From NCBI RefSeq assembly GCF_013122565.1, contig NZ_CP053258.1: a stretch of 64,000 bases of DNA. One strand, written 5' to 3'. The stretch's first letter is position 1, and the number at the start of each line of letters is the position of its first letter. Below are positions 19,022 to 35,905 of this stretch, one piece after another. Source of the DNA: Escherichia coli. Its GTDB lineage: Bacteria; Pseudomonadota; Gammaproteobacteria; Enterobacterales; Enterobacteriaceae. Both the position numbers and the translations under genes were made by a program. The notes beneath the pieces are model-generated. The model made no database searches and was not told where the DNA came from. It worked only from the letters and a program-made list of their open reading frames with translations.

Positions 19022-19372
19022 TCAGGTCCGCGTAATGGGGCAGGCGGTAAAGCGCATCATTTCACCCAGCGTACGGGTAACCTGGCTAAGTGCATATTCA
19101 ATTGCAGAAACATCACCAGTCAGCACTACGGCACCGGTAAAACGATCAAGAAAACCGATCTCTACAGCGCCTGATTTTGTGGCGATATCGCATGCGATGA
19201 TAGATGCTTCGCTGGGGGTAATCGTCAGAATGCCAATAGCAGAAACGGTGTCTGGTAAACCCAATTTCTTAAACAGATCCTTCCCTGGATTGGCGATGAC
19301 ATGTGCCAGCGTGACCTGCTTACCAGGGACATATTCCTGAATCATCCGTTCAGTTGTGTGCTGAGTTGTCAT
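19022..19372 (-). CDS. pduU: microcompartment shell protein PduU (permuted BMC domain)
   Basis: Translation ...[34 protein letters not shown]... matches PduU/EutS type; start taken at the internal Met to give about 116 aa. Confidence 0.88.
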
Positions 19373-19926
19373 TATCCCTCCACCATCTGACGCCACATGG
19401 CTTCATGTGGGCGGGCAATCACCGACCGATAGACCAACAAACCTTTTTCCCCCGCACGCTCGCTGGCGACAGAGACCGCGTTATTAACATCTGAAATATC
19501 GCCAGCAACCACCATGTAGCATTTACCGCCAATGCCAAAAGCCATATGCACGCGAACGAGAATGACATTCGCAGCTTTGACTGCACAATCGGCAGCGTCA
19601 ATGCAGGCGGCGACACTCCAGGTTTCGACTACGCCGACAGCCCGGTGCTGTTCAGCATGGTTAAGTCCGCTGATTGCAGAAAGGATGCTGGGATGAATAT
19701 TCGGCAGGACAAGACTGTCGACCAGCATTTCGCCAGCAAGGGAAGCGCCGCTGTTGATGGCCTGTTGCACCGCGCCCACATCGCCACCGAGCATCAGTAG
19801 AAATTTTCCGGGGCATAGCGTTTTGCTGACCAGTAACTCAACGTTGGCGCTTTTCAGCATGGCATCGCCGGTTTCCATCCCTTTCGCGATACTGCTAAGT
19901 TCTAAAATACCTACCGCTTTCGACAT
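19372..19926 (-). CDS. pduT: microcompartment shell protein PduT (tandem BMC domains, Fe-S)
   Basis: 184 aa, two BMC domains, conserved Cys in LCPGKF. Confidence 0.92.
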
Positions 19927-19928
19927 GG

Positions 19929-21272
19929 TTAACCTCTCACAAGCGTAATCGCGTTTTCTGTCACATCGCTGACCATGCCATCAATGCTGGCATGAATGGG
20001 GGCACCTAATGTGCCGTGTGGAATTTGACCTACACATTGTCCATGAACGACGCGATCGCCTTTTTGTACACACGCAATTGCGCTGGCACCGATGTGTTGG
20101 CGTAACAATAACGTCACTTTTTCGGGCTGAGGCACCTGTTCAGACAATGGCGCATCCTGATACCACGGGGTTAAGCCCAGTCTGGTTACCAGCCGTTTTA
20201 CGGGAATCAGTCGATAATTTGCCATTGGATCTGCAGGATTTAAGGCACCTTCGTAGCGGAGATTTTGTGCGCGTAATTCCTGCTTAAGCAGGCGGTTTAT
20301 GCGCATTGGTGAAATTCCTACCGGACAGGCGATGCTGGCGCAGACGTTGCACTCCGAACAGGTGAGCGCCGTCAGTAACAGTTGTGGCGTAGCGAGCTGT
20401 TGGTAGTTAACCGCACGTACTAATAAATGGGGTGCCAGTTCGTGACCGATTAAATGACGAGGGCAGAGATCGGTACACAAGCGGCATTGCTCACAAACAG
20501 TTTTCGCGACGGCAAGTACGCTGCGGTCATTCTGCATTCGACGTTGGATCAGTGAATGAGAGTTGGGTAAAACCAGCAAGCCGCCAGTGGTTTTGCTGAC
20601 TGGTGTGTCGAGCGATGTGATCAAACTTCCCATCGTCGGCCCGCCATTGATAAAACCAGGAGCATCTACTGTTGCGCCGCCCGCCAGCGCCAGGACTTCA
20701 CGTAAAGACATGCCGATGGGGACGGTTACCGTTATTGGTTTCGCCACTGCACCATTAACGGTGAGTGTGCGGCGCGTCACTGGATACTGTTGCTCGACGG
20801 CTCTGGCAATATTAAGTACGGTTTGAACATTATTGACCACCACACCGACGCTAACGGGTAATGCAGCGGGTGGAACGCGGCGACCAGTTGCCATCCAGAT
20901 GGTCAGCACTTCGTCTCCTGCGGGGTAAACGTCGGGCAAAATATGCAGGCGGATATCCGGTGGTAACAGTGGTGTGAGTGCGTTTATTGCCAGTTGATAT
21001 TTCTCTTTCAGCGCGATGATTCCGCTACTGGCCCCGGTGGCTTTCATCGCATAGTGAACACCGCGAAGCAGGCGGCTGGCTTGCTGCGCCATTAACTGTT
21101 GATCCACTTTCAACATGGGTTCGCATTCCGCCGCATTCACCAGGAAAGTGTCAACACGCGCTTGTAGCTTAATATGGGTTGGAAAACCTGCGCCGCCAGC
21201 ACCCACGACACCTGCTGCCTGTACTCGCTCGCGGATAGTCTGGTCGTCGCAGGAGGTTAATCCGACGTTCAT
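19929..21272 (-). CDS. pduS: cobalamin reductase PduS (RnfC-like Fe-S flavoprotein)
   Basis: 447 aa; two 4Fe-4S motifs [12 protein letters not shown] and [28 protein letters not shown]-binding region. Confidence 0.93.
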
Positions 21273-25071: not shown

Positions 25072-25563
25072 TTACTCCTGCCTGATTAACTGAATATTTC
25101 GGGTAATTGCCGCTTCACGAGCCAGTGCGGTCACACAACATTTCCGCTGTAACACCAGTATTCCAGAGCTTAACTGCGCAATATCGGCATAACTTAAAAG
25201 TCGATCACGATGAAGGTAGATCGGTTGCCCTTGCTCGTCGCACCAGCTTAGCGGTAGACGGGCGAGAGTCTTCAATTCAATGGCGTTCAGGAAATGATGC
25301 TGCAACGACAATTGAATGTGCATTCCCCAGGCTAACGCTTCGTGTATCTGGATTGCTGCTCGATCTGACGTTTCGTTCTCCGCAAGTTGTCGCAGCAGCG
25401 GCAGATCGACATATCGGATTTGTAATGACGCATACTGATGAACGCTCTCTTGAACGCTGGCGTCTCGCAGTTGAAAAACAGTCAGCACGAGTGTTTTTCC
25501 CGCACGTTGTTTAAGGCGAAAAACCACTTCGTCAACAATACGTTGCATCAGCATGTTATTCAT
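25072..25563 (-). CDS. pduM: microcompartment structural protein PduM
   Basis: 163 aa; position between pduL and pduN; PduM-like. Confidence 0.85.
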   Translation of the reverse strand: MNNMLMQRIVDEVVFRLKQRAGKTLVLTVFQLRDASVQESVHQYASLQIRYVDLPLLRQLAENETSDRAAIQIHEALAWGMHIQLSLQHHFLNAIELKTLARLPLSWCDEQGQPIYLHRDRLLSYADIAQLSSGILVLQRKCCVTALAREAAITRNIQLIRQE

Positions 25564-26192
25564 GGCACTGACACCAGTGTGGCAAAAACGTCAGGGCTAT
25601 CAGCGCCTGCGGCGTTGGCCTCATCGGTATCAATATGCATTTCAAGACGCATATCCGGAGAGACGCGAACAGCGACGTTTTCGAATATCAGTCGTCGCTC
25701 ATCACCTTCAATGGAAACCGCCACTTTATCGCCATGCGTAACGCCATAAATCAGGGCATCCAGCGGAGACATATGAATATGCCGTTGCGCGACAATAACG
25801 CCAGATGTGATCTCCAGTTCCGCAAATGGGCTTATCAAACGAATCCCCGGAGTGCCGCTGAGATCGCCTGACATGCGTAGCGGGGCGGTGATCCCTAACG
25901 TTCTGGCGTCCGTACGGGAAATTTCCACCTGGCTTGCATTGCGTAGCGGCCCCAACAAGCGAACGTTGTGCAATTTACCTTTTGGTCCCTCCAACGTAAC
26001 AACCTGTTCAGCCGCGAATTGGCCAGGCTGCATTAACGGCTTTTTCTCGCTAATCGGTTGTTCAGGAAAAAGACGCAAATAATCCGCTGTTGAAAGATGA
26101 ATATGACGACTGGAAACACCCAGAGGGATAGGGCGCTCGCGCATCTCATCCAGAATCTGACTCACTGTTTCCTGCAAGGTTTGTTTATCCAC
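25560..26192 (-). CDS. pduL: phosphate propanoyltransferase PduL
   Basis: 210 aa PduL/EutD-type phosphotransacylase. Confidence 0.9.
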   Translation of the reverse strand: MDKQTLQETVSQILDEMRERPIPLGVSSRHIHLSTADYLRLFPEQPISEKKPLMQPGQFAAEQVVTLEGPKGKLHNVRLLGPLRNASQVEISRTDARTLGITAPLRMSGDLSGTPGIRLISPFAELEITSGVIVAQRHIHMSPLDALIYGVTHGDKVAVSIEGDERRLIFENVAVRVSPDMRLEMHIDTDEANAAGADSPDVFATLVSVP

Positions 26193-26194
26193 TG

Positions 26195-26617
26195 CTACTC
26201 CCCTCGCTTATTGGCGTGCAGGCAAAGTGAGCGGGGCTCGCCTTTTTGCCGCTGACATGCCGGGTCAAGACACAAATTACAACTGATAATCTCTGAGGTG
26301 ACGGTTGTTGCTGGTGTTTCGCTTGTTTCAACCGTCACAGTCAATGCTTCAGTTGTGTGGGGCAGGATGCCCTCTCCCGGGCGGGCAATCACTTTGTGTG
26401 CGACAAGGCCATTTCGCTGTCCGGCGAAACTGGCTCCCGTCGCGATCGCCGCATTAACCGAGGCGACGTCACCGTTGATTTTGATGAGCGTCCAGCCTGA
26501 GCCATTGGTCTTCTCAAGGCCAACCAGCGTGATGGACGCGGCTTTTGCCATAGCGTCTGCGCAACTGATGGCGAGTGCCAGACCACTGACTTCAAGTAAT
26601 CCCAGTGATTGCTTCAC
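26195..26617 (-). CDS. pduK: microcompartment shell protein PduK (BMC domain plus Cys-rich C-terminal tail)
   Basis: N-terminal BMC domain (LGLLEVSGLALAISCADAMAKAA) and C-terminal tail with C-x2-C-x4-C...C. Confidence 0.88.
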   Translation of the reverse strand: MKQSLGLLEVSGLALAISCADAMAKAASITLVGLEKTNGSGWTLIKINGDVASVNAAIATGASFAGQRNGLVAHKVIARPGEGILPHTTEALTVTVETSETPATTVTSEIISCNLCLDPACQRQKGEPRSLCLHANKRGE

Positions 26618-26640
26618 GCTGTGCTCCTTAGCAAATGGGG

Positions 26641-26916
26641 TTATGCCGATTTAGGTAAAATAGCCTCAACATCACTGTGTGGACGCGGGATGACATGGCA
26701 GGATTTCACTTCGCCAACGGCGCTTGCCGCAGCGCTACCCGCATCAACGGCGGCCTTTACTGCGCCAACATCACCGCGGACCATAACCGTAATCAGACCC
26801 GAACCAATCTTTTCATAGCCAACCAGCTGCACGTTGGCGGATTTAACCATGGCATCTGCAGCTTCAATTGCGCCAACTAACCCTTTTGTTTCAACCAGTC
26901 CTAGTGCGTTGTTCAT
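26641..26916 (-). CDS. pduJ: microcompartment shell protein PduJ (BMC hexamer)
   Basis: 91 aa, close paralogue of PduA ([29 protein letters not shown]...). Confidence 0.93.
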
Positions 26917-26935
26917 ACAGCGTTTCTCCTGTGGA

Positions 26936-27286
26936 TTATGAGTGGCATTCCCTGAAGGGAATGCCTTTTACCAGGCGGGCAGCGTTATTGCCGATGCTGC
27001 GCCGGGCATGGTTATCTTGTTGATACATCAGCGTAAACAGTGGCGCTGATGCCGGTAAGTTTTTGTAATGCACAATCAGCTTTTCCCGGTCGCAGGCTAT
27101 GCCAACCAACAGGGGGGACTGACGAGCAGCCTGCCAGGCGCTATCGATGACTTCACCTGACGGGATATGTTGAATGCGAAAGGGGATGCCTTCCTCTTCA
27201 ATGCCAAGAAGCACCTCATTCCATGTACTGATACAGTCACCTATTTCCGTAACGACAATAGCGGGCGTATGTTCTTTACTTTCCAT
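26936..27286 (-). CDS. pduH: diol dehydratase reactivase small subunit
   Basis: 116 aa; follows pduG; overlapping start/stop. Confidence 0.9.
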
Positions 27287-29108
27287 GAGCCAACTCCCTG
27301 TGCCAGGAAATCAGTAGCCCGGTAGCTACCGCATTGCGCGGGCCTTCACTACCACGGATATTCCCCCGTCCGGCGACCAATCGATAATGCGCCAATGCAT
27401 CGGTGACTAACTGCGGGACTTCGAAATCCAGGGAAGAACCGCCCACCAGAACGACGAACGGAATATCGCGAATATTTCCGCCTGGACTTACCTGACGTAG
27501 CGCGCGCAGGGCATTGGTTACGAAGACGCGCTCTTTCGCACTGCGGCGAACAGCGCGTACTTTTTCCAGTGTTAAATCGCCGGGAATAGGCACCAGTTCG
27601 TCAGGTTTCACCACACAAACGCGGGCAAATACATGAGGGGACAGCGGAGTAGGGAAGAACTGAACGCTGCCGTCTTCATGGCGTAAATGGAACAGGCTTT
27701 CTACTTTTGCCAACGGGTATTTTTTGATTTCTTCTGCCAGATAACGATCATTTAAGCCCAGTTCCCTGGCAATAATCATCGTCACCATGTCGCCCGCTCC
27801 CGCAAGGTGAGTAGCTATCATTTCCCCTTTCTGATTGATGATGGAGGCATCGGTAGAGCCTGCACCTAAGTCCAGAATAGCCAGTGGACGTGTGGTTCCA
27901 GGGGTAGTCAAGGCCCCCTGAATGGCGGCTTCTGCTTCTGCGCCTCCGACCTGAACATCAACATGCAGTTTTTGCTTAATTTCACTGGCGATCATCGCCA
28001 TTTGCAGACGGTCGGATTTCACCATAGAGGCAATACCCACAGCCTGTTCCAGTGAAAATTCACCTGCCAGACCACCGGTTACGCTGACGGGGACAGAGGT
28101 ATCTATCGCCAGCAAATCCTGAATAAAAATTTCGTGGCTGGGTTTATTGGTCAGCTCCGCCATGGTCTGGCGAACATGTTCCAGCATACCGCCGATGTTG
28201 GTGCCTGGTTCTCCCGTCACGTTTTCCAGTTTTGGGCACTCACCGACCGCTTTCATAATGGCATCGGCACCAGCAGCTACATCAACGCGCGTTGTGCGCC
28301 CGGCAGAAAGCAGTTCGATATTTCCGGCGGGTATCGAACGGGCTTTAACGTCGCCAGAAGGCGTTTTCACTACCACTGCTGAACGGTTGCCGATTAGCGC
28401 CCGCGCGACAGGAACAATATTTTTAGTCTCTTCAGCATTGAGGGCGAAAACGGTGGCAATCCCATACGGGTTAGACAGGGTTTCGATAACTTTCCCGGGA
28501 ACGGCAACTTCAATTGCAGCCAGCATGCCGAGCGGAATACGATCGATGTAGAGGACTTCATCGACAATAGGTAGAGGAATTTCCAGACGGTTATTGACCA
28601 GTACGCCATCGTCGCGTTGCAGAATAACGCCAGTTAGCTGATATCCGGCGCGTACGGAGGCGTTCATCATCGTCGCGATATCGGCAAAATCAAATGCCGA
28701 TGACACCACCAGGATGTAAGGTGTGTCCGCCGGGCGTGTTAATAACTCTTGCGGAGTGATGGTGAGCCCTACGCCCAGCCCCACTCCGCCCGGAGTTTTC
28801 GGGTTGTGACCGATCATGGTTGATTCGGTGATGATAGTTTCAGTGATGGTTTCCATCGCCACATCACCAATGACCGGAGTTGCTTCGTTGATACGAATAA
28901 GCGAAATATCGCTAACATTGATGCCGACTTTTTTCGTTGCCTGTGCGAGCGCCTTCTGAATACCATGGACGTTACGCAACGTACCTTTGATTCCGGTGGT
29001 TTCCGCCAGGGCGCTACTCACGAACGATAACTCTCCAGATGCACTGAGCGTTGCCAGCGCTACCTCTGTCGATGAGTTGCCGATATCAATGCCTGCTATA
29101 TATCGCAT
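27276..29108 (-). CDS. pduG: diol dehydratase reactivase large subunit
   Basis: 610 aa, ATPase of the DhaF/PduG family (MRYIAGIDIGNSSTEVALA). Confidence 0.93.
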   Translation of the reverse strand: MRYIAGIDIGNSSTEVALATLSASGELSFVSSALAETTGIKGTLRNVHGIQKALAQATKKVGINVSDISLIRINEATPVIGDVAMETITETIITESTMIGHNPKTPGGVGLGVGLTITPQELLTRPADTPYILVVSSAFDFADIATMMNASVRAGYQLTGVILQRDDGVLVNNRLEIPLPIVDEVLYIDRIPLGMLAAIEVAVPGKVIETLSNPYGIATVFALNAEETKNIVPVARALIGNRSAVVVKTPSGDVKARSIPAGNIELLSAGRTTRVDVAAGADAIMKAVGECPKLENVTGEPGTNIGGMLEHVRQTMAELTNKPSHEIFIQDLLAIDTSVPVSVTGGLAGEFSLEQAVGIASMVKSDRLQMAMIASEIKQKLHVDVQVGGAEAEAAIQGALTTPGTTRPLAILDLGAGSTDASIINQKGEMIATHLAGAGDMVTMIIARELGLNDRYLAEEIKKYPLAKVESLFHLRHEDGSVQFFPTPLSPHVFARVCVVKPDELVPIPGDLTLEKVRAVRRSAKERVFVTNALRALRQVSPGGNIRDIPFVVLVGGSSLDFEVPQLVTDALAHYRLVAGRGNIRGSEGPRNAVATGLLISWHRELAHGK

Positions 29109-34427: not shown

Positions 34428-34629
34428 CGAAATACTCTGGCAGTTATAAACGTTTATTTTTTTACTGTTTGTGATCTGCTTTCCGAACTTATTAAAAAGT
34501 CTCCCGCTTCACGGAGGCTTTTGTTATTGTCCTTTGTGCTTCTCGTCAGTAAATCATCAGGGATGATGTGAAGATTAAATGTAAAACAATTGTTTTGCTA
34601 TAACAATAAATTAACTGGGAGGTTTTATC

Positions 34630-35544: not shown

Positions 35545-35654
35545 AGTAAATGCCCCAAAAAAAGAGGACGGTTTAAATAAACTCTGGAATGAATAATTAA
35601 CGTTATTTACCTGTTATGGGAAAAGTAAAATCAGCTCATAACATACGCTGACAG

Positions 35655-35905
35655 GTGTGGCACATTTGTGCCTGGGAAGAGGGTGAAAATCCCTCGCAGC
35701 CCCCGCTGCTGTAATGCTGACAAACCCGAAAATGCCACTGATCGCGAGATTGGGAAGGTCGGGAGAGGATGACGCTAAGCCAGAAGACCAGTCTGTCAGT
35801 CAATACCAACAACTTCGGTGGGAAGTGGGTTGCCCGGAAGCGTTCGGTAGAGTACAGGCGCGTCTTTATACCCCTACCACCCTGAAAGGATCAGGGTATG
35901 GCGGC
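35655..35905 (+). promoter_or_regulatory. cobalamin (AdoCbl) riboswitch
   Basis: Conserved elements read directly: GGGAAGAGGGTGAAAATCCCTCGCAGCCCCCGCTGCTGTAA, GCCACTG...GGGAAGGTCGGG, and B12 box AAGCCAGAAGACCAGTC. Confidence 0.75.

Follow-up and report, generated by a model that had tools for sequence, protein, structure and literature searches.

PduK, a minor BMC-H shell protein of the 1,2-propanediol-utilisation (Pdu) microcompartment, ends in a tail with four cysteines, which raises the question of whether this tail holds a redox cofactor or has another role at the organelle surface. The gene analysed here lies in a 64,000-nucleotide stretch of E. coli DNA (contig NZ_CP053258.1; hereafter the window), on which an earlier note had recognised PduK, pointed to a possible metal or Fe–S site in its tail and proposed that the shell may carry redox cofactors. 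The microcompartment literature has discussed the four-Cys tail and the possible Fe–S cluster of PduK from 2010 onwards, and both are already known, Sargent et al. and Ferlez et al. being among the published sources (PMC3836489, PMC6325248, PMC12058022); the window gene is a routine E. coli orthologue, and the Cys-tail finding as stated adds nothing new. New here are the observations that PduK orthologues exist that are Cys-free and have basic tails, that the Cys module does not track PduS and PduT, and that an acidic linker is followed by a basic module. Some true orthologues have basic tails in place of the Cys module, which offers a concrete alternative to the redox role usually assumed, namely docking or positioning at the surface. 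The sequences analysed here establish which gene this is, the three-part anatomy of its product and the conservation and selection of the module.

The window gene is an open reading frame of 140 codons plus stop with a GTG start (from the ORF list and its translation), with pduJ and pduL on either side, within a complete pduABCDEGHJKLMNOPQSTUV operon on the minus strand (33105 to 18574; neighbours matched by Pfam and NCBIfam), from which pduF and pocR are divergent (Table 1). Its product has an N-terminal BMC domain and a C-terminal extension ending in CNLCxDPxC...C, and shares 96–97% identity with BMC-domain proteins of E. coli and about 70–78% with the PduK of Salmonella and Citrobacter. In E. 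coli S42, pduK occupies the same position with the same gene order, flanked by pduJ and a phosphate propanoyltransferase gene, and is annotated only as "BMC domain-containing protein". The window ORF encodes the PduK orthologue of E. coli, and the earlier note had likewise called it PduK. PduK has been shown to be a minor shell component in Salmonella and Citrobacter (PMC9132943, PMC10350929). The region 25500–27500 is 98.4–98.6% identical to E. coli chromosomes and has a match in 641 of 5,426 complete E. coli genomes, in every case on the chromosome.

RefSeq gives pduK of E. coli S42 as a 149-residue form whose first 4 nt, presumably ATGA, are shared with the end of pduJ. In the window, the codon that corresponds to this upstream ATG is ATA (GGCATAACC; 26615–26645, minus strand), and therefore only the GTG preceded by AAGGAG can start the gene, in support of the GUG start proposed for Salmonella PduK (PMC3836489). 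Antisense ORFs across pduK (e.g., 26298–26654, plus strand) are regarded as shadow ORFs, pduK being strongly conserved. Elsewhere in the locus, an sRNA, STnc230, lies between pduF and pocR (34486–34569, minus strand, 74.8 bits), and a cobalamin riboswitch lies downstream of pocR (35636–35810, plus strand, 107.7 bits). After the riboswitch there is only a short ORF, followed by ORFs of the sizes of cobU, cobS and cobT, as in the annotated E. coli S42; judged by the sizes of the window ORFs, this arrangement would be the cbi-deleted E. coli type beside an intact pdu operon.

Table 1. Features of the pduK locus and positions of Cys-free orthologues (window coordinates, or coordinates of the named locus)
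Feature	Position	Strand	Basis
pduK CDS	26195..26617	-	ORF list, translation; 140 aa plus stop
pduK ribosome-binding site AAGGAG	26624..26629	-	direct sequence reading; 6 nt upstream of GTG (26615-26617)
BMC shell domain PF00936, aa 4-80	26378..26608	-	Pfam E=1.4e-21
Disordered linker, about aa 86-110 (PHTTEALTVTVETSETPATTVTSEI)	26288..26362	-	AF2 pLDDT below 50 at aa 89-108
Tetracysteine module, aa 112-134 (SCNLCLDPACQRQKGEPRSLCLH)	26216..26284	-	Cys codons 26279-26281, 26270-26272, 26255-26257, 26222-26224
Variable C-terminal end, ANKRGE plus stop	26195..26215	-	post-module segment median 6 aa in homologues
pduJ, canonical BMC-H, upstream neighbour of pduK	26641..26916	-	PF00936 E=6e-30; annotated pduJ in E. 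coli S42
pduL, phosphate propanoyltransferase (PTAC family), downstream neighbour of pduK	25560..26192	-	PF06130 E=1e-70; NF011652
pduS, two Cys clusters, aa 260-271 and 305-317	19929..21272	-	translation, motif scan; RefSeq product "4Fe-4S dicluster domain-containing protein"
pduT, tandem BMC protein, Cys38 in LCPGKF	19372..19926	-	translation; annotated pduT in E. coli S42
Cys-free pduK orthologue, L055	6001-6633		position upstream of pduL
Cys-free pduK orthologue, L061	5336-5998		position upstream of pduL
Cys-free pduK orthologue, L060	10001-10645		position upstream of pduL
Cys-free pduK orthologue, L062	10001-10531		position upstream of pduL

The BMC domain of PduK is single, non-permuted and N-terminal, with the order beta-alpha-beta-beta-alpha-beta according to Pfam and AF2. 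The AF2 model gives pLDDT 90–98 for residues 1–85, with strands at residues 4–11, 30–36, 42–49 and 71–77 and helices at 13–26 and 51–67. Asp21, Lys25 and Gly41 are invariant in this domain and Arg79 and Pro80 nearly so; Cys19 is the only Cys of PduK outside the tail. NCBIfam models yield only sub-threshold matches, to other BMC shell proteins. In a full-length AF2 model built on an alignment of 114 sequences, residues 89–108 fall below pLDDT 50 and the last 30 residues recover to 74–83, and when the tail is modelled alone on the same number of sequences, the module reaches 86–88 as a compact coil with one short helical turn. This confidence profile indicates that PduK is a shell tile followed by a flexible tether and a small folded knuckle.

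The tail ends in ...SEIISCNLCLDPACQRQKGEPRSLCLHANKRGE, in which Cys113, Cys116, Cys121 and Cys132 are spaced C-x2-C-x4-C-x10-C. The C-terminus TVTSEIISCNLCLDPACQRQKGEPRSLCLHANKRGE is identical to the tail quoted in the earlier note, and its description of C-x2-C-x4-C plus a further Cys after the BMC domain is exact. The conservation among orthologues on which the note had staked its proposal is borne out wherever the module exists. All four tail Cys are present, as CNLCLDPxC...C, in 120 of the 120 close homologues listed (Escherichia, Shigella, Salmonella, Citrobacter, Klebsiella and others). When full-length PduK was searched against 1.84 billion representatives clustered at 50% identity, a motif with the identical 2-4-10 spacing was found in 111 of the best 150 of 4,245 matches, with the consensus [ST]-C-N-L-C-x-D-P-x-C-P-R-[KR]-K-G-E-P-R-x-x-C-[IL]-H. 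The 23-residue signature that also covers the window protein is [ST]-C-N-L-C-x-D-P-x-C-x-R-x-K-G-E-P-R-x-x-C-[IL]-H. Across 114 diverse tails that were aligned, no substitution occurs at the four Cys or at Arg123 (two residues after the third Cys), and Asn114, Asp118, Pro119, Lys125 and Gly126 are conserved at 90% or more. His134, two residues past the fourth Cys, is found in 95 of 108 representatives, and Pro directly follows the third Cys in 67 of the 108, the window protein having Gln there.

The module is distributed from Enterobacterales to Bacillota, its carriers including Yersinia, Mangrovibacter, Hafnia, Aeromonas, Tolumonas, a Vibrio and Bacillota MAGs. It stays in register in Salmonella, Citrobacter rodentium, Klebsiella, Yersinia, Vibrio and two MAG proteins (one labelled Bacillota), while the linker between it and the BMC domain is unalignable. 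Synteny confirms two distant module-bearing proteins as positional PduK orthologues, one in the order pduE-G-H-K-L-...-N-O-P-S (L057) and the other in the order J-K-L-M-N (L058). Among 54 Enterobacterales and Aeromonadales genes, the module has 83% amino-acid identity with pN 0.11 and pS 0.78 (pN/pS about 0.14), compared with 79% identity, pN 0.13 and pS 0.51 for the BMC domain; the linker has 34% identity and is 25–135 residues long. The module is therefore at least as constrained as the shell domain, whereas the linker drifts freely, and the tetracysteine tail is a conserved, selected module. In the distant homologues of the Cys class, the linker has a median length of 88 residues and a median net charge of -13 (95% are net negative), and the module that follows has a median net charge of +2.

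The PduK proteins of Salmonella enterica, Citrobacter freundii and Klebsiella pneumoniae have the same pduJ–pduK–pduL position, the BMC domain and the module, and the module of the window protein matches that of Salmonella, Citrobacter, Klebsiella and Yersinia PduK column for column. With few variable positions, the module of these proteins and of the window protein ranges over CNLCLDPAC[QPK]RQKGEPR[ST][LQ]CLH. Escherichia PduK differs from them in having one of the shortest linkers (26 residues; 140 in total, compared with totals of about 147–163), Gln rather than Pro after the third Cys and, in the window, GTG as the sole start.

When 100,044 species genomes were scanned with the degenerate patterns SCNLCLDP and CxRQKGEPR, 54 loci were detected, in Enterobacterales, Aeromonadales and one MAG labelled only Proteobacteria. 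The match lies inside a full-length BMC-H ORF in 53 of these, and in the other (L037) it runs off the end of its contig. In these genomes the two patterns, which are too strict for distant forms, revealed no module that stands alone or is fused to another kind of protein. A tail-only profile search of a word-indexed database of 5.8 billion proteins returned only short PduK fragments from Enterobacteriaceae and one labelled Acinetobacter baumannii, and is uninformative on non-BMC carriers.

Although the module offers four conserved Cys as candidate ligands in a compact segment, it matches no curated Fe–S family or motif such as CxxCxxCxxxCP. Searches with three diverse tails gave no Pfam match even at E<=10, with Fer4 and other Fe–S, zinc-knuckle and nucleic-acid-binding families included, and no sequence relative was found among PDB chains (the best match, E=0.18, is spurious), nor any similar solved fold. 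The module resembles both the ferredoxin motif CxxCxxCxxxCP and the CCHC knuckle in its initial CxxC and nearby third ligand, and in most homologues it has Cys-Pro at the third Cys. It differs from both in its 2-4-10 spacing, its all-Cys ligands and its own N-L, D-P, R-x-K-G-E-P-R and [IL]-H signature, and it has neither the C-x2-C-x4-H-x4-C spacing nor the profile match of a CCHC zinc knuckle (PF00098-type). With its invariant Cys spacing, the module is a motif in its own right, about 23 residues long and covered by no curated family.

Some positional orthologues of PduK lack the module. Three of them, P0165 (L055 and L056), P0167 (L061) and P0159 (L060), are encoded between pduJ and pduL in PduCDE loci, and a fourth, P0195 (L062, Photobacterium), is encoded just upstream of pduL in a glycyl-radical-enzyme (GRM-type) locus; all have long Cys-free tails (Table 1). 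Those of P0165 and P0167 are rich in Ala, Lys and Pro, with a net charge of +25, and the remaining ones end in Lys/Arg clusters. What the two PduK classes have in common is a basic end carried by a long flexible tether. The existence of Cys-free orthologues means that the organelle does not strictly need the module, and their basic tails suggest that a basic terminal element is the common requirement. As for a link to the redox proteins, both pduS and pduT are absent from L055/L056 and L061 and both are present in L060 (PDU-type) and L062 (GRM-type). In this small sample, tracking of PduS and PduT by the Cys module is rejected, as Cys-free PduK occurs in loci with both proteins and in loci without either.

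Iron content, outward orientation and polar clustering of PduK are taken here from published papers. Salmonella with a whole-gene deletion of pduK grows on 1,2-propanediol like the wild type and has well-formed organelles, which gather at the poles of the cell (Yang et al., 2022; PMC9132943). Organelle mis-positioning is the only phenotype of the deletion, and the mechanism of PduK-dependent positioning is listed as open in a 2025 review (PMC13052382). The C-terminal extension is proposed to face the outside of the organelle, that is, the cytosol (PMC9132943), and exterior exposure is supported by the reaction of SpyCatcher-PduK on purified minimal shells with externally added SpyTag-citrine (PMC10350929). 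PduK cross-links to PduA and PduJ mostly via two lysines in or beside the module, and Klebsiella PduK behaved as a monomer in vitro and did not homo-oligomerise (PMC12058022).

We lean towards a reading in which the PduK module is a metal-organised basic knuckle carried on an acidic tether at the outer face of the shell and used for docking or positioning, and we consider this somewhat more probable than its being wrong. The tiling-competent BMC domain would insert PduK into the shell, and the disordered linker, which is short in E. coli and long and acidic in most relatives, would serve as the tether. The 23-residue basic module that closes the protein would have its four invariant Cys wrapped around one metal centre. 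These Cys most likely ligate a metal, because invariant ligands, fixed spacing and the Asp-Pro, Gly and His positions are typical of knuckles. Going by the reports on Salmonella PduK, the metal would be iron, possibly as an Fe–S cluster; the sequence would accommodate Zn or mononuclear Fe just as well, and we judge the choice between an Fe–S cluster and Zn or mononuclear Fe to be roughly even. As the C-terminus of a BMC-H protein is on the face thought to be cytosolic, the flexible tether probably presents the knuckle to the outside of the organelle. There the knuckle may contact the shell surface or a cytosolic partner and keep the organelles dispersed, rather than serve propanediol catabolism. 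The succession of acidic linker and basic module in the distant Cys-class homologues supports this reading; the little shielding that a polar module of 23 residues gives to an Fe–S cluster, the positional orthologues that lack the module and the monomeric behaviour of Klebsiella PduK in vitro count against it.

In the redox explanation, the four Cys ligate a redox-active [4Fe-4S] or [2Fe-2S] cluster that would help to move electrons, or to deliver clusters, across or at the shell in concert with PduS, a flavoprotein with two Fe–S clusters, and PduT, with a [4Fe-4S] cluster in its pore; we regard this as a serious possibility that nevertheless falls short of an even chance. Three close Cys and a remote one form a common 4Fe-4S arrangement, and the Fe–S ligands of FNR are spaced C-x2-C-x5-C plus a distant Cys. 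The frequent Pro after the third Cys (Gln in the window) and the presence of pduS and pduT in the window operon also agree with a redox role. The earlier note had described two canonical CxxCxxCxxxCP motifs in PduS, which is correct for the first cluster, whereas the second reads CxxCxxCxxxxCP, with one more residue before Cys-Pro. It had also noted the single conserved Cys of PduT, which is present as described. Reportedly, in the work of Crowley (2010) and Pang (2011), one Cys per PduT subunit, Cys38 of the LCPGKF motif, forms an inter-subunit [4Fe-4S] cluster inside the pore. The 2010 work of Crowley is likewise said to have reported iron in purified Salmonella PduK. Iron in over-expressed Cys4 proteins can, however, be adventitious. 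Fe–S or iron binding by Salmonella PduK is described as "partly demonstrated" in later work that cites Crowley et al. (2010; JBC 285:37838) (PMC12058022), and the instability and proteolysis of PduK on heterologous expression are attributed by the authors to the cluster (PMC3836489, PMC12058022). PduK–PduT is also a listed experimentally characterised interaction (PMC4315436), and PduT is like PduK in being a Pdu shell protein from the same operon with a Cys-ligated metal site, the site in PduK being putative. PduK is unlike PduT in that a single flexible tail, separate from the BMC fold, holds all four Cys within a span of 20 residues.

The redox conclusion of the earlier note thus keeps its foundation, a conserved and selected module for which the same proposal stands in the literature, and exceeds the evidence in its last step. 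This is because neither a curated Fe–S family or motif nor a solved relative or similar fold was found for the module, because the flexible tail has been proposed to point into the cytosol, with support from surface tagging (PMC9132943, PMC10350929), because deletion of pduK leaves growth on 1,2-propanediol unchanged and causes polar clustering (PMC9132943), and because Cys-free, basic-tailed positional orthologues exist, including at a locus that keeps PduS and PduT. In addition, a small polar module on a floppy tether at the proposed cytosolic face would have poor geometry for a fixed electron relay, and the module can be replaced by plain basic tails irrespective of PduS and PduT (L060 and L062 compared with L055 and L061). 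A structural metal knuckle, with Zn or Fe, that serves docking or positioning fits the data at least as well as a redox cofactor.

A different role for a structural Zn or mononuclear Fe knuckle would be the binding of a polyanion by its Arg and Lys residues, most plausibly nucleoid DNA or RNA, so that organelles are tethered away from the poles, which we consider unlikely. The spacing of a CCHC zinc knuckle begins with C-x2-C-x4-H, and the first three ligands of the module share it, but the fourth is 10 residues away and not 4. The invariant Arg123, the highly conserved Lys125 and the net positive module are in keeping with polyanion binding, although the charge is modest and the preceding linker is strongly acidic. 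The Cys-free tails are basic as well, those of P0165 and P0167 being histone H1-like, and there is a precedent in the phasin PhaF, the histone-like AAKP tail of which tethers PHA granules to the nucleoid. Nevertheless, we know of no report of nucleic-acid binding by PduK, and no zinc-knuckle or other nucleic-acid-binding Pfam family matches the module at E<=10. The polar gathering of organelles in the pduK deletion (PMC9132943), with its mechanism listed as open (PMC13052382), would suit such tethering, but the published metal data for PduK name iron rather than zinc. The sister protein EutK resembles PduK in having a single BMC domain and a long C-terminal extension with a small folded basic module, and in being a minor shell component and a monomer in vitro (PMC12058022). 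The EutK extension differs in having a helical fold of the nucleic-acid-binding type (PF16365) and no Cys4 site, and the NCBIfam EutK model matches only the BMC part of the window protein. A bolder form of this idea, in which a metal-folded basic knuckle with no redox centre ties Pdu organelles to the nucleoid or to a different polyanion in the cytosol, and lineages that lost the Cys swapped in basic Ala/Lys/Pro-rich tails, is speculative and in our judgement rather improbable. If true, it would explain the polar pile-up in the deletion mutant and parallel the DNA-binding-type domain of EutK.

The tail Cys could also be metal-free and form reversible disulfides, between tails or with shell proteins, for redox sensing or cross-linking. 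CxxC, which is present in the module, is also a thiol–disulfide motif. PduK–PduK and PduK–PduA/PduJ proximity is evident from cross-linking (PMC12058022), but iron content has been reported for PduK (via PMC12058022), the cytosol is reducing, and an invariant Cys4 set with fixed 2-4-10 spacing and conserved Asp-Pro, Gly and His is typical of a metal knuckle, which makes the disulfide explanation very improbable. That the tail is a chance Cys-rich sequence without function, as its disordered, fast-evolving linker might suggest, is refuted, with a negligible residual probability, above all by conservation: the same spacing recurs in 111 clusters that share no more than 50% identity. The module pN/pS of about 0.14 also speaks against chance, as does the composition of the tail, from which at least four Cys in 55 residues would arise with P about 3e-3 and the exact spacing with P about 5e-7.

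Two unusual forms of PduK were encountered among the homologues. P0054, a 121-residue variant near the E. coli sequences (4 member sequences), ends in ...CQRQKVSPAHFACTPISEGSSSG; a frameshift after the third Cys leads into an alternative-frame ORF (window 26185–26331, minus strand) and the fourth Cys is lost. Either a natural allele that has lost the module or a sequencing error could account for this variant. In a MAG labelled Citrobacter sp., one contig (L001; DXKH01000123.1) encodes a 140-residue PduK with an Escherichia-type short linker and a tail 98% identical to that of the window protein, and a second contig (L021) encodes a 163-residue PduK of the Citrobacter type; this MAG probably mixes E. 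coli and Citrobacter contigs.
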